64,000 nt of DNA from Candidatus Woesearchaeota archaeon (GCA_964617015.1 CAZTVG010000002.1:13077-77076), one strand, 5' to 3'; shown: positions 3,042 through 49,807, counted from the first letter of the stretch. Notes: generated by a model not told the origin, from the letters alone. Numbers and translations: made by a program.

Positions 3042-3152
3042 TTTTTTATTTTTAGCTTTCTTATTTTTCTTTTTATTTTTATTATTTTTTAGACTTAATA
3101 GTACAACGTCCTTTCTGGGTGTTTTAGTTATAAAAAATTATATAAGTAATAG

Positions 3153-3914: not shown

Positions 3915-4544
3915 TTATTCAACAAAAGGAACAAATATGAATCCTGGAATTTTCTTTTTTATCTCAAAGACATTTCCCTTTCTCTTGAGAACTATAAGAG
4001 ATTGTTCAAATCTTGGACCTTTTGGAAGAACAAGTATGCCTCCTTCCTTTAGCTGGCCTAGAAGTGCCTCTGGCAGTTCGCGACAGGCAGCACTTACGAG
4101 AATCCTGTCAAAAGGTGCCTGCTCTGGAAGACCGTGAAATCCGCTTTTATTGTATATCTTAATATTATTGTAATTCTCAAGATTTTCCTTTGAGCTTTTA
4201 GCCAGTTCACTGAGTATCTCAACACCAAACACCTTTCCTTCATTGCCAACAATCTCTGAGATAAGGGCGAGAACATACCCACAGCCAGAACCAAGCTCAA
4301 GCACTTTCTGTCCTTTTTTTAAATCTAATTCAGAAAGCATTACTGCAATAGTGTATGGCTGGGAAATTGTCTGTCCAGAGCCAATTGGCAAAGGCGTATC
4401 TTCATAAGCATTGTCTTTTAATTCAGATGGAACAAAATCCTCGCGTTTAACGCTTGAAAAAGCATCCAGAATTTTCTTTGAAAAACCCATTTCCTTCAAA
4501 CTTCTCAGGAGTTGTTGTTTGTTCATTTTAAAACAATTCCTCAA
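3915..4544 (-). CDS. pcm: Protein-L-isoaspartate O-methyltransferase
   Basis: GQTISQPYTIAVMLSELDLKKGQKVLELGSGCGY is the canonical PIMT pre-motif plus SAM motif I. The 209-aa length is typical. Confidence 0.9.
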   Translation of the reverse strand: MRNCFKMNKQQLLRSLKEMGFSKKILDAFSSVKREDFVPSELKDNAYEDTPLPIGSGQTISQPYTIAVMLSELDLKKGQKVLELGSGCGYVLALISEIVGNEGKVFGVEILSELAKSSKENLENYNNIKIYNKSGFHGLPEQAPFDRILVSAACRELPEALLGQLKEGGILVLPKGPRFEQSLIVLKRKGNVFEIKKKIPGFIFVPFVE

Positions 4545-4761
4545 ATTCTTTTCTTGATAATTGAATATCTTCTTTAATTATCTTTAATAGTAAACCAGGT
4601 CCTATTTTGTCTCCAGGATGATAAGGGATAACAGTTGACCTGCCATTAGGATGTTTGAAGAACATATGGCTTCCTCTTTGCCTAATAAATTTAAAACCTA
4701 ATTTCTTAAGAATTTTTGATAATTGTATCGCATCAAGACGTGGCAGTTTTGCCATCTTCAA
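4528..4761 (-). CDS. hicA: HicA-family mRNA interferase toxin
   Basis: 77 aa. KILKKLGFKFIRQRGSHMFFKHPNGRSTVIPYH matches the HicA/YcfA signature (G..xxRxxGSHxxxxH). It lies directly downstream of a HicB-like gene, and its 3' end overlaps the pcm start by 17 nt. Confidence 0.85.
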   Translation of the reverse strand: MKMAKLPRLDAIQLSKILKKLGFKFIRQRGSHMFFKHPNGRSTVIPYHPGDKIGPGLLLKIIKEDIQLSRKEFEELF

Positions 4762-4797
4762 ACTCCATTTTTTAAGAGTTTGAACGCTTTCATTGTC

Positions 4798-5016
4798 TTA
4801 AACCTCTACTTTTTGTATACCAATAAATTCACTTCTTACTTCAATACTTGGTTTTTCGCATTCTAAGTAGAGAGCAATTGCTTCCTTTGTCCTTTCAATA
4901 AGTTCATCTATGCTTTTTGCTTGTGTGTGGCATCCTGGCAATCCGACTACCTCTGATACAAAATAACCTTCCCCATCCTTTTCGATTATTACATTAAAAT
5001 TAGTCATAATAATCAT
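4798..5016 (-). CDS. hicB: HicB-like antitoxin (UPF0150 fold)
   Basis: 72 aa. FNVIIEKDGEGYFVSEVVGLPGCHTQAKSIDELIERTKEAIALYLE is the typical HicB N-terminal domain. It is paired with hicA. Confidence 0.8.
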   Translation of the reverse strand: MIIMTNFNVIIEKDGEGYFVSEVVGLPGCHTQAKSIDELIERTKEAIALYLECEKPSIEVRSEFIGIQKVEV

Positions 5017-5189
5017 AACTTAAAAGGGTATATAAAATTTTCTGACGTCTCATAATTATTATTAAATTAATTATATTAAAAATTGAGATTTTTTGTTCAT
5101 GAATAAAAAAGAAGAGAATATTCATCTTAAACCCTTAAACTAATTATCCGTCATGCATACGACGTGAATTTTAATTCACGGAGTCATGG

Positions 5190-8063
5190 CTATACTCTAA
5201 GACTAATGATTTTAGATATACCGTCATGCATGCTTACCCCGTAGAGATTTATTGCTCTTGTGATGACTTCATCATTGTGCGTGATTATTATGTACTGGCC
5301 CTTCTGCATGTATTTGTTAAGAAGACCGGCAAGTCTTTCAGAATTTTTTTTGTCGAGTGCTGCGTCAACCTCATCAAGAATATAAAAATAATAAGGCCTG
5401 TATTCCTGAATTGCAAAAATCAAAGAAAGAGCCACAAGGGTTTGTTCCCCTCCTGACAGGGATTTTACATCAAAATATTTTCCATGGCCTGTTTTAACCA
5501 AAACACTAACTCCGCCATCAAAGGGATCTTTCCTGTTCTCCATTTCCAGAGAGACATGACCTTTTGTGCTTAACTGGGAAAAATTCCTGGAGAAAAATTC
5601 ATTTAATTGATTTAGTGTCTGAACAAAAACTTTTTTCTTTTTTATGTCTATTTCATGAATTATCTTTAAAACTCCCTCTTTTTCTCTGGAAATTATTTCT
5701 GCTTTTTCCCTTATTGCATTATACTCTTTCTTTATAGAATCATAAACTTCCAGTGACCTGAGATTCACAGAACCAAGTCTTGAAAGAATCTCCTTGGTTT
5801 TGATAAGTCTCTGAACCAATGAATCTTTGCTTGCCTTGATTACCTCTATATTTTCAAACTCAAGCATTTCTGTTTCCAGATTTTCCGCCTCTGCATCAAC
5901 TCTTGCTTTTTCAATCTTTAAATCATTCATTTCCTGCTCTACGGCATGAAGTGAGTGCTGTTTTGAGAGAATCCCTGATTCCTTTTCCCTTGATTTTCTC
6001 TGAAATCCTTCTCTTTCTGAAATGAGTTCCTGGAATCTTTTGCTTAATATTTCCTCCTGCTTCTTTTTCCTTGAGAGAATTTTTTCTTTTTCTCCCAGAT
6101 TGTCTTTAAGATCCCTAAAGTCTTCCTTTAAATCTTCCTCTTCTCTAAAAATTTGTTTTAGGGAAATTCTTGAACGCTCAAGCTCTCTTTCCTTGAATAT
6201 GACTTCTGATTTCACGTTTTCCCTTGTTCTGAGCGGAATTTCTTGGATTTCAATCCTTAGTATTTCATATTTTTGCTCTATGTGGGAGCTGGCTTCATAA
6301 CTTTTTTCAAGAGTTTTTCTTTTTTTAATTAATTCCAAGAGCTCTTCTCTGACTTTTTCTGATTTTTCATGAATTGTTTTAATCTGCAGTTTTTTCTCAT
6401 TTATATTTGAAATTCTGTTCAGGTCTGATTCGGTCTTTGAGATTTCATGCGTCATTCCATCAACATCCCGGATTATTATTTCCTTTTTCTGGTAAATTAA
6501 CTCCAGTTCCTTATCCGCGTTTTCTATTTCTTTCTTCAGGGATTCTGTTTTGGGAAGAATTTCTTTCTTTATCTCCTCCATATGCTCAGGAGTTATCCTG
6601 CTTTTGCATATGGGGCATATGTCAAGTTTGGAGATTTTCTCCAGAATTTTATTCTGGTTTTCTATTTCTGATTCATTAGCAGAAGTAATTTTTTCGAACT
6701 CAACTTCCTTTTTCAGCAAGCTGCTGAGAACAACTTTTTTTTCTGCAAGCCCGAGTTTAAGCTTGTCAAGTTTTTTTGAATCAGCCCTCGGGTCAAAAAG
6801 TTCTATCGAAAAATTTTCAGCCTGTTTTAACAGAAAATCAGATTCATCCACATAATTTTTATAAAGAGTGTTTTTGTCCTGAATTCTTTCCCTGATTGAC
6901 TTCAATTCAGATTTAATCATGTAAAATCTCTTTCTTTGATTTTCAAGTCTTTCAAGTTCTCTCTTTTTTTCCTCAATCTCTTTTGTTTTCTTTTCTGCTG
7001 TAGGGGATTCTTTCCTGAGTTCTTTCACGGAAATTTCTGTTTCTTTTATGAACAAATGAAGCTCATGCTTTTCCCTTGAAAGTTCGGAAAGTTTATTCAC
7101 CTGGTTTTCAAGCCTTACACCCATTCCCGCAAGTTCTGCCCTCAGATTCGCAATTTCATGGTTAAGCTTTTCCTGTTCAAGCCCTGCAGATTTCTGTATT
7201 TTTAGGTTGATTTCATTAATTTTCAACTCAAAGTTTTTTATTTCTGCTTCAATTCCTGTTATTAGCTTTTTCAGATTTTCTGTTTCTTTGTTCTTTTTTC
7301 CCATATCTGAAACTATTTTTTCAAGCTCTCTCTTTTTTCTGGAAAGGTCATGATAAATTATGCTTGCTCTTAATCTTTTTGTGTCTTTTTCAAGTTTTTT
7401 ATATTTCAGTGCCTGCTGCCTCTCTTTTTCAAGATTATTAAGGTAAGATGCTCTCTCTCTCAGAATCGAGTTGATTTCCATGAGTTTTTCATCTGTCTTT
7501 TCAAGCTCTCTTAGAGATTTCGCTTTTCTTGATTCATAAACAGAAATCCCGGAAACCTCTTCAATTACTTTTCTTCTTTCCTCTGGCTGCATTATGACAA
7601 AATTCTGGATTTCACCCTGGAGCACGATGTTAAACCCCTGGGGGTCTATTCCTGCCTGAGCCAACAAAGACAAAATTTCCTGTCTTGTTTTTGTCTCATT
7701 GTTAATTTTATATACGCTTTGCCCGTTTCTTCTTACTGTTCTCTTTATTACCACCTCATTTTTTTCTATGGAAAAAATTCTTTCTGAGTTATCAAACACG
7801 ACCTCAACAGAAGCTTCTTTTGCAGGAGATGCTGCTTTTGTCCCGAGAAAAATTAAATTTCTTGCTTTGGCAGCCCTCATAGACTTTATGCTAAGCCTTC
7901 CTAAAACAAAACACAATGCATCAGAAATATTTGATTTTCCAGAGCCATTAGGACCAAGAATAACATTTATCCCCCGCGTGAACAGAATTTCTGTTCTTCT
8001 AGGAAAACTCTTAAATCCATGAATAACTAATTTTTTTATATATGACATGGTCCCAACTTCCAT
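5190..8063 (-). CDS. SMC-family chromosome-organisation ATPase with SMC-type heads, no recognisable hinge and a central CxxC zinc-hook-like motif
   Basis: N-terminal head: GFKSF...ILGPNGSGKSNISDALCFVLG. C-terminal head: LSGGEQTLVALSLIFAIQEYRPYYFYILDEVDAALD. About 300-aa heptad-like Lys/Glu-rich arms flank LDICPICKSRITPEH at the midpoint (CPIC = nt 6606-6617). The protein is 957 aa, against about 1150-1200 aa for canonical SMC. The true start may be the ATG at 8048 (MSYIKK). Confidence 0.85.
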   Translation of the reverse strand: MEVGTMSYIKKLVIHGFKSFPRRTEILFTRGINVILGPNGSGKSNISDALCFVLGRLSIKSMRAAKARNLIFLGTKAASPAKEASVEVVFDNSERIFSIEKNEVVIKRTVRRNGQSVYKINNETKTRQEILSLLAQAGIDPQGFNIVLQGEIQNFVIMQPEERRKVIEEVSGISVYESRKAKSLRELEKTDEKLMEINSILRERASYLNNLEKERQQALKYKKLEKDTKRLRASIIYHDLSRKKRELEKIVSDMGKKNKETENLKKLITGIEAEIKNFELKINEINLKIQKSAGLEQEKLNHEIANLRAELAGMGVRLENQVNKLSELSREKHELHLFIKETEISVKELRKESPTAEKKTKEIEEKKRELERLENQRKRFYMIKSELKSIRERIQDKNTLYKNYVDESDFLLKQAENFSIELFDPRADSKKLDKLKLGLAEKKVVLSSLLKKEVEFEKITSANESEIENQNKILEKISKLDICPICKSRITPEHMEEIKKEILPKTESLKKEIENADKELELIYQKKEIIIRDVDGMTHEISKTESDLNRISNINEKKLQIKTIHEKSEKVREELLELIKKRKTLEKSYEASSHIEQKYEILRIEIQEIPLRTRENVKSEVIFKERELERSRISLKQIFREEEDLKEDFRDLKDNLGEKEKILSRKKKQEEILSKRFQELISEREGFQRKSREKESGILSKQHSLHAVEQEMNDLKIEKARVDAEAENLETEMLEFENIEVIKASKDSLVQRLIKTKEILSRLGSVNLRSLEVYDSIKKEYNAIREKAEIISREKEGVLKIIHEIDIKKKKVFVQTLNQLNEFFSRNFSQLSTKGHVSLEMENRKDPFDGGVSVLVKTGHGKYFDVKSLSGGEQTLVALSLIFAIQEYRPYYFYILDEVDAALDKKNSERLAGLLNKYMQKGQYIIITHNDEVITRAINLYGVSMHDGISKIISLRV

Positions 8064-36861: not shown

Positions 36862-37029
36862 ATGATAAAAGAGAGTGATATTTCGTTTCTTAATCAGCTT
36901 GTCAAAACCCTTGAAGACTCTTTTAACAAGCTTGAAAAGGCATACAACAAAAAAGATTCTGAAAATTTTAACAAATTAAAAAAAATTGTCGTCCAGACAC
37001 AAGGAAAAATTTTAGAGGTAATACAATGA
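36862..37029 (+). CDS. Small hypothetical protein in the pilus operon (not in the ORF track)
   Basis: 55-aa ORF MIKESDISFLNQLVKTLEDSFNKLEKAYNKKDSENFNKLKKIVVQTQGKILEVIQ. Its TGA overlaps the ATG of the downstream platform gene (ATGA at 37026-37029). Predicted helical. Confidence 0.35.
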   Translation: MIKESDISFLNQLVKTLEDSFNKLEKAYNKKDSENFNKLKKIVVQTQGKILEVIQ

Positions 37030-38357
37030 TAGAAGGAGATATCGCAATTGAAAAACTCGGGAAAAGCATATTGCAGGAGAGAAAAACAGTCAAGGAAATT
37101 AACTCCTTATTTAATTATTTCAGCAATGCAGATACACAGGAAGAGAAAAGGATGATTTCTTCTCAAATTGAAGCACTAACAGGTTCACTCAGAAAAACAG
37201 GGCAGGAGGTAATCGGTTCTATGGAAAAGATTTCTTTGTTTAAGCCTCTTCATCAGGATTCAGAAAAAAAAGCCTTTATTCCGGAAACAGAGAAAATCCA
37301 GCAGAGAACTTTCCAAAAAATACCCTCCATTAATGTTGTTGAAACAAAGTCTTCCAAAACAAAGCTCAAATTATCGCGTCTTGAAAAAATTACTCTCAAG
37401 AGAATGAAGAAGACAAAGAAAAAAATTGTTGAAAAGAAAGAAAGAAAGCCAAGCACGTATGCCATGATTTCAAGCAGTCTTTTTTATAAATTTTCAATGT
37501 CTCTTATTGACAAAGGATTGTTTAAACAATTAAAGAGAGATCTGGTGAGGGCAAATATGGAATTTGTGCCTGCAAATTATATTTCTTTTATTTTTTTCAC
37601 AACTGTCTTGTCTGCAATTGCCGCTGTTTTTGTTACCCTGTTCTTCTTGTTTTTTAACATTACTGCGCTTCCTCCTTTCATAGTCGGTATTGAAGAATCT
37701 TTGGGCTTAAGGTTTCTGAAAGTTTTCTGGATTTTGCTTGCCATACCTGCCATAACTTTCCTTTTTGCCTATTTTTATCCCTCTCTTGAAAAAAAATCTT
37801 TAGAAAGCAAAATTAACTTTGAACTTCCTTTTGCAGCCATACACATGTCATCCATCTCGAGTTCAATGATAGAACCAAGCAAAATTTTCAGCATAATCAT
37901 CTCCACAAAAGAATACCCTTATCTTGAAAAGGAATTTATAAAACTTCAGAATGAGATAAACATATACGGGTATGATTTGGTAACTGCACTGAAAAACAGG
38001 GCATTTAACAGTCCCAGCAGAAAGCTTTCAGATCTTTTTAATGGCTTGGCAACATCAATAACCTCAGGGGGAAATATTCCTGATTTCTTTGAAAAAAGAT
38101 CCCAGAGTCTTCTTTTTGAACACAGGCTGGACAAAGAAAAGCAGTCAAAGGCTTCTGAAACGTTTATGGACATTTACATAAGCGTTGTTATTGCCGCGCC
38201 GATGATTTTAATGCTGTTGCTGATGATGATGAGGATAAGCGGCCTGGGAATTTCATTAAGCCCTTCCATGATTACTCTTATAATGGTTCTTGGAGTTACT
38301 CTCATAAATATTTTTTTCCTGACTTTCCTGCACATAAAACAGCCTGAGGGGACGTAA
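37026..38357 (+). CDS. FlaJ/TadC-like pilus platform membrane protein (T2SS-F domain), first half
   Basis: A cytoplasmic N-terminal region, then multiple TM helices and a T2SSF-like segment YDLVTALKNRAFNSPSRKLSDLFNGLATSITSGGNIPDFFEKRS. Confidence 0.75.
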   Translation: MIEGDIAIEKLGKSILQERKTVKEINSLFNYFSNADTQEEKRMISSQIEALTGSLRKTGQEVIGSMEKISLFKPLHQDSEKKAFIPETEKIQQRTFQKIPSINVVETKSSKTKLKLSRLEKITLKRMKKTKKKIVEKKERKPSTYAMISSSLFYKFSMSLIDKGLFKQLKRDLVRANMEFVPANYISFIFFTTVLSAIAAVFVTLFFLFFNITALPPFIVGIEESLGLRFLKVFWILLAIPAITFLFAYFYPSLEKKSLESKINFELPFAAIHMSSISSSMIEPSKIFSIIISTKEYPYLEKEFIKLQNEINIYGYDLVTALKNRAFNSPSRKLSDLFNGLATSITSGGNIPDFFEKRSQSLLFEHRLDKEKQSKASETFMDIYISVVIAAPMILMLLLMMMRISGLGISLSPSMITLIMVLGVTLINIFFLTFLHIKQPEGT

Positions 38358-38362
38358 TTAAA

Positions 38363-39211
38363 ATGGAATTTAGAAAAATACATTGGTTTGGAATTGGCCT
38401 TGCTATGGCTATCATTGCACTATCTTTCTTCTTTCTTGGGACAAGATTTTTCTTCTTTATTTTCGGAATCGGTTTTTTGACTGGTGCCTCTCCTTTTGTT
38501 TTCTCCATAATCAATGAAACAAGAGTTGCCTCTGAAAAAGAAGAGATGTTTCTGGAATTTGCAAGGAGCCTTGTTGAAAGTGTAAAAACAGGAACACCAA
38601 TAAACAAAAGCATAATTAATGTCAAAGACAAGTTTTACGGGGTTTTAAGCGAGAATATAAAAAAACTGGCTAATCAGATTTCTCTGGGTATTCCATTGAG
38701 CAAAGCTCTCCAGACTTTTTCAGATGATGTCAATAACAAAACAATTTCAAGAACCCTGACACTGATAGGACAGGCGGAAAAGAGCGGAGGAGAAATAGGT
38801 GGTATTCTGGAATCTGTCACAGAAGCTGTAAGCATGGCAGACAAACTGAAAAAAGAAAGAAAAGCCTCAATATCTGCTCTCGTGGTCCAGGGATACATAA
38901 TCTTCTTTGTATTCATAATCATAATTCTTGTTCTTCAGTTCCAGATACTCCCTTTGCTTACAGGATTTGCCACGACAGGGGAAGGGGCTGCTGGAATTGG
39001 CGGTTTTATAGGGGGAGGTGGAAGCCCTATAAGCCAGGAAGAATTATCCAACTCATTCCTGTATCTCTTGTTAGTCCAGGGGTTTTTCAGCGGACTTACA
39101 ATAGGCAAATTATCAGAAGGAAACGTAAAGACAGGAATTAGGCACTCTTTTACACTGATGCTGTTTGCATTTTTAATTTCAGCAGGAGCAAATGTATTTT
39201 TCGGAGGATAA
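38363..39211 (+). CDS. TadB/TadC-like platform membrane protein (T2SS-F domain), second half
   Basis: LVESVKTGTPINKSI...LANQISLGIPLSKALQTFSDDVNNKTISRTLTLIGQAEKSGGEIGGILESV is a typical T2SSF repeat flanked by TM helices. Confidence 0.8.
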   Translation: MEFRKIHWFGIGLAMAIIALSFFFLGTRFFFFIFGIGFLTGASPFVFSIINETRVASEKEEMFLEFARSLVESVKTGTPINKSIINVKDKFYGVLSENIKKLANQISLGIPLSKALQTFSDDVNNKTISRTLTLIGQAEKSGGEIGGILESVTEAVSMADKLKKERKASISALVVQGYIIFFVFIIIILVLQFQILPLLTGFATTGEGAAGIGGFIGGGGSPISQEELSNSFLYLLLVQGFFSGLTIGKLSEGNVKTGIRHSFTLMLFAFLISAGANVFFGG

Positions 39212-40518: not shown

Positions 40519-40926
40519 ATGAAAAAGTTTGAATTTTTAGAGCATACCGCAGACATAAAATTCAGGGCTTTTGGAAAAAACATGGAGGAAGTTTTTGAAA
40601 ATTCTGCTTTGGCAATTTCTGAGATAATATCAAGAGGACAAAAAATAAAATCAGAAAAGAAAAAACAAATAGAGGTTGAAGGGCATGACAAAGAATCTTT
40701 ATTGTATAATTTTATTGAAGAACTTTTATATTTGACAGAAGCAGAAAGTTTTTTGGTTTCAAAAGCAAATATAACAGTGTCAGGCAACAAATTAAAGGCA
40801 AAGCTCTCAGGAGACTCAACCTTGAATTATTCAAATTTTGACCATATTAAGTCTCCAACCTATCACGAGATGTATTTCAAAGAAACAGGAAACGGCTGGG
40901 AGGCGCAAGTTGTCGTGGATGTTTGA
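40519..40926 (+). CDS. Archease (RtcB activator)
   Basis: FEFLEHTADIKFRAFGKNMEEVFENSALA is the archease N-terminal signature. 135 aa, in an operon context with rtcB. Confidence 0.9.
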   Translation: MKKFEFLEHTADIKFRAFGKNMEEVFENSALAISEIISRGQKIKSEKKKQIEVEGHDKESLLYNFIEELLYLTEAESFLVSKANITVSGNKLKAKLSGDSTLNYSNFDHIKSPTYHEMYFKETGNGWEAQVVVDV

Positions 40927-40974: not shown

Positions 40975-41856
40975 ATGAAATTTAACGAGAATCTCACGGC
41001 AATTCATTCTTATCTATCTGCGGACGGTTGTGTTATTAAAAATCCTTCAACACAGAAACTGAAATATTACAGAATAGATTTTAGAAACACTAACAACACT
41101 TTACTTAAAGACTTTCAAGAAAAGTTTTATAATTATTTTTATATCAAGCCTAATTTATATCTTAACACAAGATGTTCTATAGGATCAAAAGAGATCTATT
41201 GGAAATTAATAAATCAATTTGGAAGTTTTTACTCAAAAGAATGGAAAATGCCTATGTTAAATGGAAAATTAACCAAAATATGGCTAAGAGCCTTCTTTGA
41301 CTGTGAGGGTTGGGTATTTTGTAAATCACATCAAAATAGGCATATTGGAATTGATTCTGTTAATGAAAAGGGATTGGACCAAATAAAGGAAGCATTAGAA
41401 AACCTTGGGATAAAATCAATTAAAAAAACAATAAAGAATGGGAGAATATATAGGTTGTTTATATATGGAAAAGAAAATCTAATAAAATTTCAAAAAGAAA
41501 TCGGATTTTTACATCCTTCAAAAAAAGAATTGTTGGAAAAGACAATATTAGATTTTGTTGATTATGACTGGCACCTAAAACAAGACAAGAGTTTGATTAA
41601 GGATATTATGCTAAAAAGAGTAAAAATAAAAAAACCATATATTGTTAGAGTAATTTCAAAGAAGAAAGATAATTTAGATAAGTTATCAAAATACTTAAAC
41701 ATGTTATTTTCAATAGAATTTATTAAAATTAATGAAAGGGTAAATGGTATTGGAACAAAATATTTTGAACTTAATGTTAATAAAAAAGATGAGGTTAAAA
41801 AACTAATAATGGAAGGACTTATTAATGAAGAACAATCAAATAAAGTGGGAACTTAA
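40975..41856 (+). CDS. Free-standing double-motif LAGLIDADG homing-endonuclease-like protein
   Basis: Two LAGLIDADG-type motifs, IHSYLSADGCV and WLRAFFDCEGWV, about 100 aa apart. A Lys-rich C-terminal extension follows. Confidence 0.75.
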   Translation: MKFNENLTAIHSYLSADGCVIKNPSTQKLKYYRIDFRNTNNTLLKDFQEKFYNYFYIKPNLYLNTRCSIGSKEIYWKLINQFGSFYSKEWKMPMLNGKLTKIWLRAFFDCEGWVFCKSHQNRHIGIDSVNEKGLDQIKEALENLGIKSIKKTIKNGRIYRLFIYGKENLIKFQKEIGFLHPSKKELLEKTILDFVDYDWHLKQDKSLIKDIMLKRVKIKKPYIVRVISKKKDNLDKLSKYLNMLFSIEFIKINERVNGIGTKYFELNVNKKDEVKKLIMEGLINEEQSNKVGT

Positions 41857-41862
41857 TTTAAA

Positions 41863-43287
41863 ATGCTAAAAGAAAAAATGAAGAAAATTGCAGAGAATGT
41901 CTATGAATTTCCTAAAGAAGGGAAAATGCTGGTTCCAGGAATAGTTTTTGCTTCTGATAAATTATTCAAAGATATAGAAGAAGAATGTGTCCAACAACTT
42001 TTCAATATCTGCCAGCTAACTGGAATTATTAAATATGGTATCGTCATGAGCGATGTGCATGTCGGCTATGGCTTTCCTATTGGCGGAGTTGCGGCTTTTG
42101 ACTTGAAAAAAGGAATAATTTCTCCAGGGGGTGTTGGCTATGATATCAATTGCGGAGTCAGACTTCTCGCAGCTAACTTAACAAAATCCGAGTTTTTAAA
42201 AAAAAGAAAAGACGTCACCCATGAGATAGCAAGAAACGTTCCTGTTGGTTTGGGTAGGGGAACAAAACAAAAACTTTCTGATGCAGAACTGAATGAAATA
42301 ATGAAAAAAGGAGTAAAATGGGCTGTTGAAAAAGGATTCGGAACAAAAGAAGATATAGAAAGGGTTGAAGATAATGGCTGCATTAAAGGTGCAGACCCAA
42401 GCAAAGTTTCTCAAAGAGCTAAAGCCCGTGGAAGAAATCAGTTAGGAACTCTCGGAGCAGGAAATCATTTTATTGACATACAAGAGATAAATAAAATTTA
42501 TGATGAAAAAATAGCAAAAATATTTGGATTAGAAAAGAAGGGCCAGATCGTTGTGATGATCCATACAGGCTCCCGGGGTTTGGGACATCAGACCGCTTCC
42601 GATTACATCAAAGAAATTGAAAAAGAATATGGAACAGGCCATCTCCCGGACAGAGAATTGGCATCTGCCCCAATCAATTCCAAATTAGGCAGGGATTACA
42701 TGGCAGCGATGGCGGCTGCGGCAAATTTTGCATTTACGAATAGACACATGATTATGCATAAGGTAAGGGAGGCTTTCAAAAGATTTTTCCCAAAGGTTAA
42801 ACTGGATTTAATTTATGACATAGCGCACAACATAGCAAAATTTGAGTTTCACAACGTAAACAACAAAAGCGTGGAAGTTTGTGTTCACAGGAAAGGCGCA
42901 ACGAGAAGTTTTGGGCCTGGAAGAAAGGAGATTCCCTCTGTTTACAGAAAAATTGGTTGTCCAATTTTCATTCCCGGAAGCATGGGAACTTCTTCTTACA
43001 TCTTAATCGGAACAAAAAAAGCAGAAGAAATATCTTTCGGTTCTACAGCCCACGGTTCCGGAAGAGTAATGTCAAGAACCCAAGCCAAGAAACAATTTTC
43101 TCCCGAAGAAGTCAGATCAATGTTAAAACAAAAAGACGTTTATGTAGAGGCCCAGAGTGTGAAGGGATTATTAGAAGAAAATCCAAATGTTTATAAAAAT
43201 TCTGATGAAGTTGTAAAAGTCAGCCACGAATTGGGCATAGGAAACTTAGTCGCAGAACTTAAACCAGTTTCAGTCCTAATAGGATAA
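41863..43287 (+). CDS. rtcB: RNA-splicing ligase RtcB
   Basis: GGVGYDINCGVR, GAGNHFIDIQ, HTGSRGLGHQ and HGSGRVMSR. 474 aa with no intein. Confidence 0.95.
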   Translation: MLKEKMKKIAENVYEFPKEGKMLVPGIVFASDKLFKDIEEECVQQLFNICQLTGIIKYGIVMSDVHVGYGFPIGGVAAFDLKKGIISPGGVGYDINCGVRLLAANLTKSEFLKKRKDVTHEIARNVPVGLGRGTKQKLSDAELNEIMKKGVKWAVEKGFGTKEDIERVEDNGCIKGADPSKVSQRAKARGRNQLGTLGAGNHFIDIQEINKIYDEKIAKIFGLEKKGQIVVMIHTGSRGLGHQTASDYIKEIEKEYGTGHLPDRELASAPINSKLGRDYMAAMAAAANFAFTNRHMIMHKVREAFKRFFPKVKLDLIYDIAHNIAKFEFHNVNNKSVEVCVHRKGATRSFGPGRKEIPSVYRKIGCPIFIPGSMGTSSYILIGTKKAEEISFGSTAHGSGRVMSRTQAKKQFSPEEVRSMLKQKDVYVEAQSVKGLLEENPNVYKNSDEVVKVSHELGIGNLVAELKPVSVLIG

Positions 43288-43458
43288 GAAAAATTATTCC
43301 TGAAGAAATTTAACAAATTTTATTGTGAAAACAACAGGCAGAATAAAAATTAATCCTGCTATCATGAAAAATGATTTAGTGTATTCGGATATATCTCCAA
43401 TTCCCATATAAAGATGTTGTTTTAATAATATTTAAAGATAATATACAAAAAAGAATAT

Positions 43459-44493
43459 TCATTTTTCTTCTGAATAAGAATCTTTAGAGAAATTTCTCCA
43501 TTCAATTCCAAGATCTAAAAAATCAATTTCTGCAAATCTGTTTAAATTAAGTTTTCCTTTCCCAGTAAGATACTTAAAGATTTCCATAACCTGAATATTC
43601 GCAACAGCCCCTGCAATTGGACCCAGATTTCCTGTTTGTTGAATATCTTTTATAACTTTTAAATTACTTAGAGAATCATTTCTTCTTTGATGCTCTATAA
43701 AATCATCAAAAGAAGCAGTTTTACCAGGGATTATTATTGGTCCAATCATTCCAAGATGCATATTATATCCTCCGGCAATACAGTAAGGAATATTATACTT
43801 TTGAGCATATTCATCAATTATTCTTGTCGTTTCTTGCACTGACGGTGAATCAGCACAATTCACTAAAAAATCCGCATCAATGACAATCTCTTCTAGATTT
43901 TCCTCTTCAGAAACCATTTTTGTAAATGTTCTTATATTTGAATCAGGTATCTTTTCCTTGATTACATCAACTTTCAATCTCCCAATATCTCTTTCATTAA
44001 AAAACAATTGTCTGTTAAGATTACTCTTTTGAACTACATCTGGATCAGTTATCCTTATCTCTCCAATTCCTAACTGATACAAACCATTAACAATCCATGT
44101 TCCTATTCCCCCTATGCCAAATACAGAAATAGTTGAATCTTCAAGCTTTTTTTGTAAACTAATTGTCTCTTCATGGGAATTTGTGAGTTCACCAATAAAT
44201 AACATTTGTCTTGAGTATCTTTCCTCAGTTTCATAGTCATCTTCTCTTATAATTCCTTCATATTTTAATGATTTTAAACAAGTCATTACCTTTCCACTTT
44301 CATAATCACTGGAAAGTTTATCGACAAGTAAATCCACATCTTGGCCAATTTTCAATTCACTAATAATTCTTTTTACTAATCCATCTACTTCAAACGTTTT
44401 TACTCTTCTTGTCCCTGTAAATATAACTTTGTAGATATCGCTTGATTCTTCTAATATGTAAATAGATTCTCTTAATTTTATTTTTTTACTCAT
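43459..44493 (-). CDS. ThiF/MoeB/E1-like adenylating enzyme with an N-terminal RRE-like (PqqD-like) domain
   Basis: RYSRQMLF, VFGIGGIGTWIV (GxGxxG) and ITDPDVVQKSNLNRQ form the E1-like core. The first ~90 aa (IYILEESSDIYKVIFTGTRRVKTFEVDGLVKRIISELKIGQDVDLLVDKL) look like a RiPP recognition element. There is a 4-nt ATGA overlap with the upstream gene. Confidence 0.75.
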   Translation of the reverse strand: MSKKIKLRESIYILEESSDIYKVIFTGTRRVKTFEVDGLVKRIISELKIGQDVDLLVDKLSSDYESGKVMTCLKSLKYEGIIREDDYETEERYSRQMLFIGELTNSHEETISLQKKLEDSTISVFGIGGIGTWIVNGLYQLGIGEIRITDPDVVQKSNLNRQLFFNERDIGRLKVDVIKEKIPDSNIRTFTKMVSEEENLEEIVIDADFLVNCADSPSVQETTRIIDEYAQKYNIPYCIAGGYNMHLGMIGPIIIPGKTASFDDFIEHQRRNDSLSNLKVIKDIQQTGNLGPIAGAVANIQVMEIFKYLTGKGKLNLNRFAEIDFLDLGIEWRNFSKDSYSEEK

Positions 44494-45065
44494 TTTACCC
44501 TCTCACAATAGAATACTTTACCTTTCCCTGGTGGCCCTGTAAGAAGATTTCCCTTATCATCACATGGAAAAATGACTTTATAATTCTTGAAAGCATTCAT
44601 TAATTTTGAATTCTCATTTAAATGCCATGAACCAATTATGACTAAAATAGGCTTTTCTGTTTTTATTGTATATTTTTTAATCATCTGTATATGTTTTATT
44701 TCTCGCTTTTTTAATATTTTATCTAATTGTCTTTCCTCATTTTTTAAATGAATCTGCTTCTTTACTTTCTCCTGTAAATTTTTATTAAGCCCAAAATTCT
44801 TAAAATCAATTCCTATTAACTTTATTTTTTTCTTACGACAAAATCTTATGAGTTTTTCAACTTCGTCAAAAGAAGTCATATTTGAGATTTTTCTAGTTCT
44901 TAGAATTTTTTCATAATCTTCTTTTGTTTTTAAGGAATGATTTTCCAATCTTTCACATAAAACAAAATCAGGTTTAATTTTTTCTATAATCTTTTTTTGT
45001 TTCCTAAAATCATCGATAAAACCATGAGTATCCCCTAAGAAAAAAAATAAAAAAGAAAAAGTCAT
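44490..45065 (-). CDS. TraB/PrgY/TIKI/ChaN-superfamily-like protein (putative metalloprotease)
   Basis: FFFLGDTHGFIDDFRKQKKIIEKIKPDFVLCERLE (compare GTxH...PDxVxxE) and the C-terminal LVIIGSWHLNE (compare GxxH) fit the two His-containing motifs of the TraB/TIKI superfamily as recalled. 191 aa. Confidence 0.45.
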   Translation of the reverse strand: MTFSFLFFFLGDTHGFIDDFRKQKKIIEKIKPDFVLCERLENHSLKTKEDYEKILRTRKISNMTSFDEVEKLIRFCRKKKIKLIGIDFKNFGLNKNLQEKVKKQIHLKNEERQLDKILKKREIKHIQMIKKYTIKTEKPILVIIGSWHLNENSKLMNAFKNYKVIFPCDDKGNLLTGPPGKGKVFYCERVK

Positions 45066-45067
45066 TT

Positions 45068-45205
45068 TTACATCCAGTATTTTACACTGGTGTAGCCCAT
45101 ATATGCTTTGTCTTCAACCAACCTAAGTCCTTCATAGGAATTTCCCTCTCCTAATCCAGACTCTTCTTCTGAAGAATCTCTTAAAGTTTCTTCTAGTCTT
45201 TCCAT
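45068..45205 (-). CDS. Unannotated 45-aa acidic peptide, candidate precursor peptide
   Basis: MERLEETLRDSSEEESGLGEGNSYEGLRLVEDKAYMGYTSVKYWM. GGAG sits 7 nt upstream of the ATG. The stop is 2 nt before the ATG of the next gene. It is below the 60-aa cut-off of the ORF track. Confidence 0.5.
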   Translation of the reverse strand: MERLEETLRDSSEEESGLGEGNSYEGLRLVEDKAYMGYTSVKYWM

Positions 45206-45362
45206 ATTAGTCTCCAGATTCCACAATATTTAAGTTTTTCGATAATAAACAGACATATGCATTAACCAATAAAGTCACAGTTATTGCACAATCTAAATTA
45301 TTAATATACTCAAGAAAAGAACAATATTTATAAAATATATTTATAACTGCATTATAAGATAA

Positions 45363-47108
45363 ATGGAAAGAATAGAAATACCTCTTGGCTATGTAAGTGA
45401 AATGTCAGCAGGTAGCTTTACCGAGCCTTATTCGTTCTTACAGGCTGCAGAACGCGCCCAAGACATAGGCTCAAGGCTGATGTCAAACACAGAATATCAA
45501 AGCGCAATCAATTATTTTGAAAAGCGTCTTCCTGACGAATCAGCGCTGGAGGCGCTTTCCAGCCTTTACGGAAACAATTTCGGAAGTCCTGGATACGCAG
45601 GTGCAAGGACAATGACTGGGACAATCATTGAAAAAAACGGAACAGTTACAGATGTAGATGGTGTATTTGGGAAATATCTCTACGGTTCAAAACAATACTA
45701 TGGTAAGCAACTTGCAGATTTGCTCAGTCTCGCAAGGCAGATGCAGGAAAGAGGGAGAATTTCTTACATAAAAGAATTTGATGAAAGCACAGGTCTGCCT
45801 GTCGCTATAAGCAGCGAGCCTAATCTTAAATACCACAACGCAGTTTTCTATGTCTCGCCTTCTGTGAAAGAAACAGGCGTTGTCGTGCGTGGAATACATC
45901 ATTCTGTGGGAGAGCCATGTGTGAAATACAACGTCGCAATTCTTCCTCTTGATTACAGGGACATCATGCTAGGTCACAGGACAGTTAGCGATACAAACAG
46001 GGCAAAGCTTGGAATGATAACAGGTGTAGCAGGTGCTCTGATTTACGAGCTTGCAGACAAAACAATTCGTGGCAGGATTTCTACAAAGCAAGCTGTGAAA
46101 AGGATTACTTCTTACGTTTCTGACAAGAAAATGAACAGGCGTACATTCAACTCTGCGCTTGCTTTATTCTCTCTTTATTTAGCAGGTTGCGGCGGAGGCA
46201 CAAATCCATCTCCATCACCCTCTCCTTCACCACCTCCGCCTTCACCACCTCCGCCACAAACATTTACGTATTCTGGCAGCATTTTGAAAAGAATCGCCAA
46301 TGACAATTCAAAAATAGGGCAGGGTGTTGTAAGGTTAGAAGGCATTCCTGGAACATTCACAGGAAATATAGATTCCGCAGGCAACTTCAGCATAAATGGT
46401 GTAAAGTCAGGAACATACAAAAGAACAACAAGTGACGGAGCAGGTGATTCTGTCTATGTTCCTCAGGTAGAATCTGTTGTCCAGATAAACGGCAATATTA
46501 CAGGACAGGATTATTCTGTCATAGAGAGGGGGGCGAACAGATTTGGTCAAGAATTTAATCAGTTGTTCCAAGAGTTCTATTCAAAAATAGGGTTGGGTTT
46601 AACTGGATCTGCTGGGCTATTCAAATGGGGTAATTTAGTAGGGCAAACGCCTTTGAAAATAAGGAGTGCGGCTTCGACAATTCCTGATAATATAGAAAGT
46701 CGATTCATGAACGATGTTAATTTTGTAAATAATAGAGACACCCCTACATTTTCTGGTGGAAGAATTGTGTCTTTGCCTGTTGAATTCGGAGAAACAGCAT
46801 CAGACTATGAGATAGAAATGTCAATGCACGATGAACCAGGAAGCTTTAGAGTAAATTTCCCCTTAACAGACGGCACAAGAATAATAAGAGCAAGAGCACT
46901 ATTCGATTTTTCCGCCGGTTCTCCAGACATATGGATTATTTCACACGAATATGGTCATTGCTACGGTGCTGCAGATTTCAAAGATGACAATTTTATAAGC
47001 ATAATGAATAGCATAACGGTTCCTACTATTAACGACGTGTTGGCTTTCTATCTTTTTAATCATCCAGACGTTAAACCAGGCAACAAAGCTCCAGATATCA
47101 ATCCGTGA
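45363..47108 (+). CDS. Membrane- or lipid-anchored zinc metalloprotease with a CarboxypepD_reg-like domain and an unusual 256-aa N-terminal domain
   Basis: Internal MNRRTFNSALALFSLYLAGC (from nt 46131; Cys at 46188-46190), then a Pro/Ser linker PSPSPSPSPPPPSPPPP, then a beta-sandwich-like segment (GVVRLEGIPGTFTGNIDSAGNFSINGVKSGTY) and HEYGH (46944-46958). Confidence 0.65.
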   Translation: MERIEIPLGYVSEMSAGSFTEPYSFLQAAERAQDIGSRLMSNTEYQSAINYFEKRLPDESALEALSSLYGNNFGSPGYAGARTMTGTIIEKNGTVTDVDGVFGKYLYGSKQYYGKQLADLLSLARQMQERGRISYIKEFDESTGLPVAISSEPNLKYHNAVFYVSPSVKETGVVVRGIHHSVGEPCVKYNVAILPLDYRDIMLGHRTVSDTNRAKLGMITGVAGALIYELADKTIRGRISTKQAVKRITSYVSDKKMNRRTFNSALALFSLYLAGCGGGTNPSPSPSPSPPPPSPPPPQTFTYSGSILKRIANDNSKIGQGVVRLEGIPGTFTGNIDSAGNFSINGVKSGTYKRTTSDGAGDSVYVPQVESVVQINGNITGQDYSVIERGANRFGQEFNQLFQEFYSKIGLGLTGSAGLFKWGNLVGQTPLKIRSAASTIPDNIESRFMNDVNFVNNRDTPTFSGGRIVSLPVEFGETASDYEIEMSMHDEPGSFRVNFPLTDGTRIIRARALFDFSAGSPDIWIISHEYGHCYGAADFKDDNFISIMNSITVPTINDVLAFYLFNHPDVKPGNKAPDINP

Positions 47109-47194: not shown

Positions 47195-49807
47195 ATGGGG
47201 TCAAAACAGTCAGCAGTATTTTCGGGTTTAATAATTTTCTTGGCAGTTATTCTATCGTTAACTTTCATTGGATTTTTCTCTGGCGAGTCTTCGGCAGCCA
47301 TTTTAAACGGAAACGGCGAGTGCATAGGTCGCGAATGCCCAATAGAATGCGGGCCAGGAGAATTTGTGTGCCAGGGAGGTATTCTTGACAGCGGAGTGTG
47401 CTGCATAGCTGACGAGGAAATTTGCACATTTGATGATCTTAACGGCAATTTATTTGGACGGTGTGATGACAATTTACCTAATGGAAATTTTATTGATGTG
47501 ACACATACTGCATCTTGTTCCATCTTTGTACCTAGTGGTGGTTGGTGCGGCGGCTCATGCAAGGAAACTATTGAGATACTGCCGGATGCGTGCACAAAAA
47601 AAATCACCCTGACCAGCGTCACTCTCGATGACGACGGTGAGACAGCTGCCAATGGAAATGTTCTTGTGAGTGACTACTCTTGTACTTGCAGGTCTGGTTC
47701 CATACCATTGGGTTCATGTGCTTTATTCCCAAACAGCCCTGACGGTACATGCTCAGGAGGAACAACATGTGGGTCAAAGACTGGTAGTGGGTGTGCAAGC
47801 ACTGGGAGTTACAACACAAATGTGCCTTTCACCCGCGGCACACAGCTATCTGCATATGTTTATGCACTAGACAACTGAAAGTCGCGAAGTTCAGGCAATT
47901 GGGGTGGAGGCAATACAGTCTATACAGAGAGGCGTGCGCAATGCGATTCTGGTTACAAGTGTGATGCATCTACAGGAAGTCCGCAATGCATACTTGCGAC
48001 CTGCGGCAACGGCGTCTGCGATGCTGGGGAAGATACTGCATGCCCTGGAGACTGCCAAATAATATGTGGTAATGGTGCAATTGAAGGAACCGAAAAATGT
48101 GACGGCACGAATCTTGGCGGAGAGACATGTCAGTCATTGGGCTTTACAAGTGGAACACTTGGATGTTTTTCTCCAGGAAGTGCAAATGAATGTACATTTG
48201 ATACAACTGGATGCTCTGCAGTCTTAAATAATCCTAAGGGCAATCACGATACATCAGACTGTACATCAAGTGTGGGGTGGACATGCGACGCTGATGATTA
48301 CACCCAGGCATTAAATGTAGAGCTTTACGCAGACGGCTTAAAAGGAAGTGGTGGTGTTTTAATAGCTTCTGTGCTTGCTGACATAACAAGGGAGCAGGCA
48401 GTTGCTAACCAATGCGGCGGCAATCCAAGCCATGGTTTCTTGTTTAATAGTACTCCTGACAATCTTAAAGATGGGTTAGATCATTCAATTTATGCTTATG
48501 GGATTAACACAGGCTTAGGTGATGATACTTTGCTTTCAAATTCGCCACAAACAATTAATTGTGCACCTCCATTAAAACCCCCAACCTGTACTTTTAATAG
48601 TGCTTCGTGGAGCACTTCTCAAACAGATAGTGGAAATAATGTTGTCTTGACAATTCAGGGAACAGACTGTGATTCAGAATCTGTGGATTTTTTCATTGCA
48701 GAAGTTGACTGTGTTGGTATTTGTAATTTCGGAGACATTGATTCACAAGATACAGCAAAGTTAAACATTAGCTGGATAAGAGGCAGTTTTTCAGGAAATC
48801 AGTCTTCTGTTTCATGGGTTGCTGAATGGATAAAAGATGAAAATAATTGTATTCTTGGTGTTTGCGGCGATGATGATCCTGAATATGTCTTCGAAGCAGA
48901 ATTAGTAAACAACCAGAGTGTAAACATAGATCAAAGCGGAGAACTGAAAGTTAATTTTGTTTCTCCGCCAGAATGCAGCGTGATAACTATATGCAATGAA
49001 TATACAAGTCAGAATTCATGTAATCTTGATGATTGCAATGTGGCTGAAGCCAGTATTCCAGGTGATATAGATTGCAATGATCCTAATATTGATTGTAGTG
49101 GTTGTTTCTGGAATTCTACAGGTAATAAATGTGATGCCAACTGGAATGCAACTAGTACTGGTTTTTGTGGTGATGGCATAATAGATCCGGGGGAGCAGTG
49201 TGATGGTAGTAACTGGGGAGATACTATAACTAGCTGTAGTGATTTCGGCCTTACTGACGGAAGCTTAAGCTGTAATTCCAATTGCCAGTTTGATACATCC
49301 CAGTGTATTGGAACTGCTGGTGAGTGTGGTGACAACACAATAAACCCTGGCGAGACTTGTGATGGTGATGACCCTGGACAAGGTGGTGATGGTGACTGGG
49401 GACTTATATCAAGCTGTAGTGACTTTACGCTTATTGATGGAAGCTTAAATTGCAATGCTGCCGGAACTACAGATGAATGTCAGTTTGATACCTTGCAATG
49501 TACAGGCGGACAAGGAATTTCTAAAATAGGCCAGTGTAAATACACTGCACAGACAAGCGATACCTGTGAAGACGACGGTTTCTTGACTTTCTCATGGACA
49601 GCTAGCTGGACATGGGATCCTGAATGTGATGCCACATGCCAAGCCCAAGCAGCAAACCAGGATAAGGCAGCACAATGTAGAGACGGGCAAAAGACTGTTG
49701 AGTGTCCTGCACAAATTCTCCTTCCTTTTTTCGGATTTTACAATATAATTGTTGTTTTGATAATGGTTTCACTGATTTATATGATTATGTCTACGAGAAA
49801 GAAATAA
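47195..49807 (+). pseudogene. Cys-rich secreted, C-terminally anchored surface protein. The single 870-codon frame is interrupted by one in-frame TGA (47876-47878)
   Basis: ORFs 47195-47878 and 48137-49807 share a frame. I translated 47879-48136 and found no stop (KSRSSGNWGGGNTVYTERRAQCDSGYKCD...CGNGVCDAGEDTACPGDCQIICGNGAIEGTEKCDG...). The N-terminus has a signal peptide (VFSGLIIFLAVILSLTFIGFFSGESSA). The C-terminus has a TM anchor plus RKK. The downstream part has no in-frame ATG until its last 20 codons. Confidence 0.6.

Follow-up and report, generated by a model that had tools for sequence, protein, structure and literature searches.

Enzymes in which a recognition element for peptides that are made by the ribosome and modified after translation (RiPPs) is fused to a ThiF-like adenylation domain form an established and growing group (PMC12596934, PMC12150305). 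The characterised enzymes with such a RiPP recognition element (RRE) adenylate a carboxylate of the precursor peptide, which is then captured by a nucleophile of the peptide (PMC12596934). This nucleophile is the Asn amide for MccB, a backbone nitrogen acting on a Glu side chain for PaaA, a Cys thiol for GrcB, a backbone amide for EnfB and the Trp indole nitrogen, which attacks the C-terminal Ile, for IndF (PMC12596934). The precursors are often aromatic or Trp-rich at the C-terminus, as in IndA (NWYFI) and EnfA (WWIVI) (PMC12150305, PMC12596934, PMC11256085). In an AlphaFold 3 model of IndF the leader is bound to the RRE of one subunit and the C-terminus lies in the partner subunit's active site; in addition, the ind cluster includes a dedicated leader peptidase (PMC12150305). 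Here we compare with these systems a cassette of three genes on the minus strand (45205-43459) of a 64-kb stretch of DNA from a Candidatus Woesearchaeota archaeon (GCA_964617015.1, CAZTVG010000002.1:13077-77076), which is referred to as the window. The cassette encodes a peptide of 45 amino acids (aa), a 191-aa protein and a 344-aa ThiF-like protein.

A second group of relevance is the Tiki superfamily, which includes the proven endopeptidases Tiki and RRSP, the Ere esterases acting on macrolactones and, with ChaN and PMT, proteins that are not enzymes, and for which the catalytic site was defined as 2His/2Glu (PMC6254334). In the literature searched, leader removal by Tiki/TraB-type peptidases had been suggested for graspetide loci only (PMC8939145).

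The three genes are closely packed, and the cassette is found again in hundreds of related DPANN archaea. With moderate confidence we consider it a minimal cytoplasmic ThiF-type RiPP maturation pathway, in which the peptide would be docked, adenylated at its terminal Met, closed to a ring and trimmed of its leader.

Gene layout and conservation of the short peptide

In the AT-rich window (about 33% GC) the precursor peptide gene occupies 45068..45205 of the minus strand and encodes MERLEETLRDSSEEESGLGEGNSYEGLRLVEDKAYMGYTSVKYWM, 45 aa plus stop. Two nucleotides (nt) after its TAA stop codon the ATG of the second open reading frame (ORF) is located, which encodes the 191-aa protein (44490..45065, minus strand). 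This ORF shares 4 nt (ATGA) with the third one, the 344-aa ThiF-like ORF (43459..44493, minus strand). An initial annotation of the window, derived from the sequence alone, had described three coupled minus-strand genes, and the same coordinates were found here. A GGAG motif on the minus strand (45212..45215), separated by 6 nt from the start codon of the peptide gene, is a putative Shine-Dalgarno-like signal. The short ORF could also be read in a 52-aa form with a TTG start at 45226. The ATG at 45205 is favoured as start, because the homologues have the conserved motif ME.LE at their N-terminus.

The sample consists of 42 loci from species-representative genomes with a homologue of the 191-aa protein, supplemented by loci fetched via ThiF homologues. 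An ORF of 44-64 codons ending in ...YWM is present directly upstream of the 191-aa homologue in 36 of the 45 fetched loci. Hence, homologues of the two enzymes do co-occur with a short upstream ORF with a conserved aromatic C-terminus, as anticipated in the initial annotation. When public proteins were searched with a profile of 29 distinct peptides, 268 clusters at 90% identity were obtained. The possibility considered earlier that the short ORF is not conserved in relatives is contradicted by these clusters. Public homologues stem almost entirely from metagenome-assembled genomes labelled Pacearchaeota, Woesearchaeota or Nanoarchaeota. The terminus YWM is found in 118 of the 120 clusters listed; the remaining two (P0287 and P0326) end two residues earlier at ...SIKY. 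Several public records already list the peptide as a hypothetical protein, so that the description of the ORF as unannotated holds for the window, where it was missed, and not in general. The peptide gene was overlooked, yet it is detectable by annotation.

In the alignment of the peptides Met1, Tyr24, Gly26, Thr39, Tyr43, Trp44 and Met45 are invariant. If the C-terminal Met is numbered 0, the near-invariant positions are Glu5, Leu/Phe(-18), Tyr/Phe/His(-10), Gly(-8), Gly/Pro(-7), Ser(-5), Ile/Val(-4) and Lys(-3), the latter rarely replaced by Arg or Met. Counts at the C-terminus are based on the 118 complete sequences among the 120 listed: Thr(-6), Tyr(-2), Trp(-1) and Met(0) occur in all 118, whereas Ser(-5) and Lys(-3) are each kept in 114, with Arg or Met in the remaining peptides at position -3. 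The pair Glu(-14)-Asp/Glu(-13) is common but not invariant, and there is no conserved Asn. Two blocks emerge from this pattern. The first one, YxGLx(L/K)(V/I)E (Tyr24-Glu31; 45113..45136, minus strand), contains the invariant Tyr24 and Gly26 and is the proposed recognition sequence, to which the enzyme may bind. The second one, Y35..G-x-T39-S-V-K-Y43-W44-M45 (45071..45103, minus strand), is the proposed core with the putative modification site. The 22 residues from Tyr(-21) to the C-terminus are free of insertions and deletions and all variation in length is confined to the N-terminal part; the YxGL block is therefore held at a constant distance of 21 residues from the C-terminus.

Conserved residues are encoded by varying synonymous codons, for example ACA, ACT, ACC or ACG for Thr(-6), all four Gly codons for Gly(-19) and three codons for Ile(-4). 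Consequently, selection acts on the protein rather than on DNA or RNA. The trio is also retained in the divergent locus L053, with a peptide ending in ...AYDHVVTESQSQYLGPTGTKYWM. Its C-terminal block YLGPTGTKYWM keeps Tyr(-10), Gly-Pro-Thr and Lys-Tyr-Trp-Met, and Tyr(-21) is present as well. Taken together, the short ORF is a real gene.

The three genes belong together. For a survey of the neighbourhood, ORFs of at least 70 aa were clustered in 43 non-redundant loci (the window and 42 others, several on truncated contigs). The family of the 191-aa protein recurs in 41 and the ThiF family in 31 of these loci. They are followed by a large secreted protein (5 loci) and RtcB (4 loci), and all other families are found in at most two loci, so that the trio co-occurs to the exclusion of other genes. 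Of these rarer families, none among those listed resembles a transporter or a tailoring enzyme. The distance from the peptide stop codon to the start of the next gene is at most 22 nt in every locus. In locus L043 (1747-3522, JBAQGX010000003.1) the order is peptide-ThiF-Tiki instead of peptide-Tiki-ThiF; thus, the trio survives rearrangement.

The ThiF-like enzyme and the Tiki-fold protein

The 344-aa protein consists of an N-terminal domain of about 88 residues (44230..44493, minus strand) and a ThiF/E1 adenylation domain (residues ~89-344 plus stop; 43459..44229, minus strand). Pfam ThiF (PF00899) matches residues 93-336 with an E-value of 4.5e-42 and 144 bits, compared to a cut-off of 28. 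Invariant in 32 family sequences are Gly126, Gly128, Gly129, Gly131, Asp150, Asp152, Asn158, Arg161, Gln162, Lys174 and Asp215. The motifs RYSRQ, GIGGIG and DPDVV..NLNRQ, which had been quoted in support of a complete E1/ThiF adenylation core, correspond to invariant columns of the family alignment, and this assignment is borne out by the Pfam match and the invariant ATP site. Since all residues for binding of the nucleotide and Mg are invariant, the enzyme should bind ATP and Mg and adenylate a substrate, and a silent scaffold is unlikely.

By sequence, the best matches in the PDB are PaaA and MccB with E-values of about 1e-21 (phmmer; 1.6e-21 for PaaA). Scored with the family profile, MccB reaches 104.9 bits and PaaA 90.2 bits, compared to 61.6 for ThiF and 58.5 for MoeB. 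The alignment with MccB begins in the last helix of the N-terminal domain. An AlphaFold2 model of the protein has a mean predicted local distance difference test score (pLDDT) of 87 and a predicted template modelling score (pTM) of 0.83. In this model residues 4-78 adopt a β-β-β(-β)-α-α-α topology (strands within 4-35, helices within 38-78), followed by a Rossmann-like domain. With Foldseek the whole chain superposes on MccB and PaaA over 343-364 columns, with template modelling (TM) scores of 0.72-0.73 and E-values of about 1e-20, whereas ThiF and MoeB cover only about 255 columns with a TM score of 0.56. The full-length fold and the closeness in sequence therefore support an architecture of the MccB/PaaA type, as had been expected, including the N-terminal domain. 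According to the model and its superposition, the N-terminal domain resembles an RRE or the peptide-binding domain ('peptide clamp') of MccB.

For the 191-aa protein the predicted model is of high quality (pLDDT 93.9, pTM 0.90). The family profile yields only chance-level matches to sequences in the PDB, so that a link to a superfamily has to be established by comparison of folds. The top Foldseek matches in the PDB are ChaN (2g5g; probability 1.00, E-value 4e-4, TM score 0.51), HopBA1 (5t09), a toxin (6a7h) and PMT (2ebf), of which ChaN, HopBA1 and PMT are among the structures listed as Tiki superfamily (PMC6254334). Weak Pfam matches point in the same direction: Cofac_haem_bdg is hit by 15 of 30 members and TraB_PrgY_gumN by 10 of 30, and DUF5694 is also among the hits. 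No curated family is matched above its gathering threshold, the best E-value being about 0.001.

In the family alignment Gly11, Glu38, Asp87, Arg121, Gly145 and His148 are invariant, and Thr13 and His14 are conserved in at least 90% of the members. The motifs GDTHG, PDFVLCE and GSWH thus contain the conserved columns Gly11, Thr13, His14, Glu38, Gly145 and His148. Residue 12, the first acidic position of the motifs, is Asp in the window, Glu in L053 and variable elsewhere. The similarity to TraB, PrgY, TIKI and ChaN proposed in the initial annotation is upheld by the fold matches and by the conservation of His14, Glu38, Arg121 and His148; an unrelated fold without a His/Glu site, considered there as the opposite outcome, was not obtained. 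Our best call from model and motifs is that the 191-aa protein is a predicted hydrolase of the Tiki fold.

A possible maturation pathway and its alternatives

The 45-aa product would be a precursor with a variable acidic leader, the recognition block YxGLx(L/K)(V/I)E and the near-invariant core ...Y-x-G-(G/P)-T-S-(I/V)-K-Y-W-M. With its N-terminal β3α3 domain the 344-aa enzyme, probably dimeric like MccB, PaaA and IndF, may dock the recognition block; the peptide C-terminus, a fixed 21 residues away, would be threaded into the adenylation site. There, ATP would be used to form the acyl-adenylate of Met45, and the attack of an intramolecular nucleophile would produce a macrocycle with a mass difference of -18 Da. 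This layout, in which the recognition block keeps a constant distance to an aromatic, invariant C-terminus with a free carboxylate, fits the known scheme of RRE-ThiF enzymes. As nucleophile, the hydroxyl of Thr(-6) is our first choice, which would result in a seven-residue lactone, though we hold this with low confidence; the phenol of Tyr(-2), the indole nitrogen of Trp(-1) or a backbone amide may act instead. Lys(-3) is ruled out, as some species have Arg or Met at this position. Finally, the Tiki-fold His/Glu hydrolase may cut off the leader, which is the task of IndP in the ind cluster, or, less likely, reopen the ring.

The core is near-invariant while the enzymes share only about 60% identity. 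Antibiotic RiPPs typically show the reverse, with hypervariable cores. A core that barely varies across hundreds of species, without a linked exporter, argues for a conserved physiological target and against an antibiotic in an arms race. Its conservation suggests a cofactor, a signal or a host-interaction molecule as candidate roles. In its boldest form our proposal would be a DPANN-wide peptide-derived molecule, in which a small ring is built on the Met of ...TSIKYWM by new ThiF chemistry, with the first Tiki-fold leader peptidase and a physiological, non-antibiotic role. We put this forward tentatively, as a possibility that is rather doubtful in its full extent.

Several observations weigh against the proposed maturation pathway. 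In the N-terminal domain of the ThiF-like enzyme no match to the PqqD and RRE sequence models of Pfam was found. Because of the missing PqqD match the label RRE rests on topology and superposition; of the PqqD-type RRE suggested initially, the β3α3 fold with its superposition on MccB and PaaA is supported, and a match to PqqD by sequence was not obtained. For the 191-aa protein conservation in the alignment extends to three of the four 2His/2Glu positions only, as position 12 varies, and the match of the modelled fold is modest (TM score 0.51, E-value 4e-4). A transporter, immunity or tailoring gene does not recur in the 43 loci. Moreover, the Tiki-like gene lacks an adjacent ThiF gene in loci L010 and L031, and four more divergent Tiki-like genes are solitary, so that the hydrolase may act independently of ThiF. 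The coupling of peptide and enzyme genes without an attenuator is unusual for a secreted natural product. Last, the conservation of the whole C-terminal half of the peptide would also fit a small functional protein. On the other side, the loss of the leader alongside the loss of RRE-ThiF in L010 fits the docking model. An analysis of covariation between peptide positions (-16 Leu/Lys, -7 Gly/Pro and others) and residues of the ThiF-like and Tiki-like proteins in 23 complete trios was uninterpretable. The top pairs, e.g. peptide Lys(-16) and Tiki S146C, merely split two subclades, and phylogeny confounds the signal.

Among the alternatives, a reversible switch or self-protection pair survives best, and we still regard it as unlikely. 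Here, the ThiF-like enzyme would close a C-terminal lactone or lactam, an Ere-like esterase of the Tiki fold would reopen it, and the leader would be kept. The superfamily does include erythromycin esterases, which open macrolactones (PMC6254334), and an Ere-like gene occurs in graspetide loci with an unclear role, possibly in resistance (PMC8939145). Some ThiF-RiPP clusters, e.g. that of enterofaecin, manage without a leader peptidase (PMC11256085), and the conserved N-terminal motif ME.LE would be in line with a retained leader. However, a futile cycle encoded in one coupled operon of a streamlined genome is hard to rationalise.

We give little credence to a second alternative, in which the peptide would serve to modify proteins, as a modifier of miniature size, or to carry sulfur. 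The E1 would activate its C-terminus for conjugation or as thiocarboxylate and the Tiki-fold protein would be the deconjugating enzyme. This requires the same E1/ThiF chemistry, and it would account for a wholly conserved C-terminal half as in a functional small protein, for the lack of a linked exporter and for the coupling of peptide and enzyme genes, which suggests roughly stoichiometric production. It is at odds with the bulky YWM end, which differs from the flexible GG tail of ThiS, MoaD, SAMP and ubiquitin, and with the length of the peptide, as 45 aa are too short for a β-grasp fold. No ORF of less than 130 aa with a C-terminal GG, as expected for a β-grasp partner, exists within the 64-kb window. 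There is neither a rhodanese domain nor an E2-like or JAB partner, and the model of the 344-aa protein has no extra domain beyond the N-terminal and the adenylation domain. With the NCBIfam equivalogs for ThiF, MoeB, UbaA and TcdA it scores 77-102 bits, far under the cut-offs of 266-450. The identity as an E1 activating sulfur carriers or ubiquitin-like proteins was rejected on the grounds of these scores and the missing GG partner in the window. Clustering with the sulfur-carrier E1s, which the initial annotation had considered, is thus not observed, since the protein is closer to MccB and PaaA than to ThiF, MoeB and UbaA. PADLOC indicates generic E1-E2 domain similarity only for the ThiF-like protein and nothing for the other two proteins, and membership in a defence system was rejected as well.

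The third alternative, which we consider very unlikely, assumes that the ThiF-like protein is only a scaffold on which the peptide docks, similar to the E1-like protein that accompanies YcaO cyclodehydratases, with the Tiki-fold enzyme as the sole catalyst. Catalytically silent ThiF-like scaffolds exist (PMC12596934), and L010 has a YcaO and a dehydrogenase nearby. The ATP- and Mg-binding residues, however, are invariant throughout the family, and L010 itself lacks ThiF. As noted in the initial annotation, there is no YcaO in the window, nor is there one in any locus carrying ThiF; with the ATP site intact, a YcaO-associated E1-like docking protein was rejected. The weakest alternative is a microcin-C-like peptidyl-nucleotide 'Trojan horse' with a C-terminal nucleotide adduct. 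It is favoured by the fact that no solved structure is more closely related than MccB, but it can practically be dismissed: all 118 complete peptides terminate in Met instead of Asn, so that the route via succinimide to a phosphoramidate is unavailable, an acyl-adenylate of Met would be labile, the Cys residues of VPGKTGCYEC in MccB are absent from the corresponding PGKTATFDDF, and no mccC/D/E/F-like genes are linked.

Genomic context and relation to known systems

Further features of the window and of individual loci lie outside the conserved module. A 37-aa ORF with a single transmembrane segment (43294..43407, minus strand) follows the ThiF-like gene. In L001, a syntenic locus, a clear homologue, MKIEEVMGIPSLLLAIGLFFILPFVFIAKSVRFLRE, comes after ThiF (~6235-6345), and in the 24 further loci examined no comparable ORF follows that gene. 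The 37-aa ORF is probably a real gene for a small membrane protein of this sub-lineage and lies outside the module. The earlier suggestion of an export or immunity factor was rejected, since conservation is limited to this single relative. The divergently transcribed neighbour at 45363-47108 encodes 581 aa with a PSPSPSPSPPPPSPPPP linker and a C-terminal HEYGH motif. It was initially taken for an extracytoplasmic metalloprotease. This protein has no significant match in Pfam or NCBIfam and is not conserved beside the module in the 43 loci; hence, that assignment was not substantiated and the gene is not part of the module.

On the other side of the cassette, archease (40519-40926), a free-standing 293-aa LAGLIDADG ORF (40975-41856) and a complete RtcB (41863-43287) are located. 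A homing-endonuclease-like gene is thus positioned between an RNA ligase and its cofactor gene, and homologues of the LAGLIDADG ORF and archease are also found together in L008. RtcB adjoins the cassette in only 4 of the 43 loci, and the idea that RtcB/archease belongs to the system was rejected. Upstream (37026-39211), two genes encode T2SSF (PilC/FlaJ-like) membrane platforms, as they do in the syntenic L001, and suggest an assembly locus of the pilus or archaellum type beside the RtcB region. Between 46001 and 50000 the GC content rises to 0.40-0.42 from about 0.33 elsewhere. In this GC-richer part there are genes that encode large proteins, Cys-rich or secreted (47195-47878 and 48137-49807), without family matches.

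Two variant loci contain a Tiki-like gene without an adjacent ThiF. In L010 (2946-6501, JACQLK010000032.1, Pacearchaeota) a leaderless 17-codon ORF, MINKRSYSDGTSIMYWM, precedes the Tiki-like gene. About 1 kb downstream a 72-aa ORF rich in Cys, Ser and Gly, a YcaO (Pfam E-value 1e-42) and a nitroreductase-type dehydrogenase follow; this set resembles a RiPP cluster of the azol(in)e type, here in a DPANN archaeon. In L031 the Tiki-like gene is intact (2900-3573) and a peptide remnant contains an in-frame stop before DHYAGETSIKYWM. The same locus harbours a RadA gene (4016-6214) that is split by an intein, which has a LAGLIDADG domain. A further divergent member, L056, is uninformative, as Ns mask the expected end of the peptide gene.

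Relatives of the ThiF-like protein were collected by an exhaustive profile search, which yielded 236 representatives at an E-value of 1e-30 or better. The DPANN family scores at least 290 bits. After a sharp drop, about 150 full-length matches of about 360 aa follow at 220-137 bits. The nearest homologues outside DPANN come from Bacillaceae (Evansella, Siminovitchia, Paraliobacillus) and metagenomes, and share the N-terminal domain. In five of their loci (L050, L051, L052, L054 and L055) the ThiF gene is followed by a gene of about 300-330 aa and an MFS transporter. The former matches Lip_A_acyltrans in L050, L052 and L055, and L051 additionally contains an acyl-carrier-protein-like gene of 93 aa and an S9 peptidase. 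This cassette appears to be a separate uncharacterised system. None of the five loci contains a Tiki-like gene or a YWM peptide; thus, in our sample the Tiki pairing is specific to the DPANN clade.

In the searchable literature, without subscription journals, we found no description of an archaeal ThiF-RiPP or of a Tiki-fold partner. The 2025 reviews of ThiF-like RiPPs, the IndF paper and a survey of archaeal RiPPs mention neither, and the pairing of a Tiki-superfamily protein with an E1-like enzyme was likewise not mentioned in the literature searched. The IndF study mined bacterial RefSeq only (PMC12150305). All characterised ThiF-RiPPs are bacterial. If our proposal is true, the trio would represent the first archaeal branch, with a precursor ending in Met and a minimal Tiki-fold partner. 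The families of ThiF-like RiPP precursors described so far each gave new chemistry, leading to a phosphoramidate, an indolizidinone, a thiolactone, an imide and an indolylamide. The genomes of Pacearchaeota and Woesearchaeota are tiny, and dependence on hosts is assumed for both. Since the trio is kept in hundreds of species with a nearly unchanging product, it likely matters to the DPANN lifestyle. With three genes and about 1.75 kb the system is small.

The 191-aa protein shares its fold with the Tiki/TraB/PrgY/ChaN/Ere superfamily (RRSP, Tiki1/2, EreB, ChaN, HopBA1, PMT C2), and its pattern GxTH...E...R...GxWH probably corresponds to the 2His/2Glu site. The fold common to ChaN, HopBA1, RRSP, PMT C2 and Ere is of the α/β type, built around a parallel β-sheet. 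It differs from these proteins as a minimal, single-domain and cytoplasmic form of about 190 aa with a variable first acidic residue.

Of the RiPP enzymes, MccB, the microcin C7 synthetase of E. coli (PDB 3h5n, 6om4), is the best match in sequence and fold. It has the same two-domain architecture and shares RYSR, GxGGxG, NLxRQ, ADxP and GPxxVPGKT with the 344-aa protein. Its target is the carboxylate at the C-terminus of a ribosomally made peptide, as proposed here. In contrast, the identity is only 21-23%, and the 7-mer MccA ends in Asn whereas the 45-aa precursor ends in Met. The Cys residues of the VPGKTGCYEC stretch, which bind zinc in MccB, have no counterpart in the archaeal enzyme. Microcin C is enterobacterial and comes with mcc genes for export, tailoring and immunity, while the archaeal cassette has none linked (at most 5 of 43 loci for any family outside the trio). 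Membership was rejected, as neither a C-terminal Asn nor mccC/D/E/F-like genes were found. PaaA of the pantocin A pathway (PDB 5ff5), also an RRE-ThiF fusion, ties with MccB as top match (TM score 0.73). It modifies an internal Glu-Glu-Asn together with the oxidase PaaB. Here, Glu(-14) is not invariant, Asn is not conserved and a PaaB-type oxidase is absent from the neighbourhood; thus, membership in the pantocin A type was rejected too.

A parallel in cluster organisation is offered by IndF/IndA/IndP (Streptococcus indolylamide) and EnfB/EnfA (enterofaecin), which are minimal clusters of a precursor and an RRE-ThiF enzyme with or without a leader peptidase, as the trio may be. In both, adenylation of the C-terminal carboxylate is followed by its intramolecular capture, in which 18 Da are lost, and the C-termini are aromatic and contain Trp (PMC12150305, PMC11256085). 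Their strictly conserved XWXXX register, however, places Trp, the nucleophile or anchor, at -3 (PMC11256085), whereas in the archaeal peptide Trp is found at -1 and position -3 is Lys, Arg or Met. For this reason membership in the IndF/EnfB type was rejected. IndP is an M16 zinc protease and the partner in the trio has a Tiki fold. As described, the ind and enf clusters are all bacterial and encode transporters and regulators, which sets them apart from the trio. The initial view that this combination matches no known RiPP class is therefore correct insofar as the cassette belongs neither to the microcin C nor to the pantocin nor to the IndF/EnfB type. Nevertheless, it is not a wholly unknown combination but probably a new branch of the RRE-fused ThiF RiPP group.

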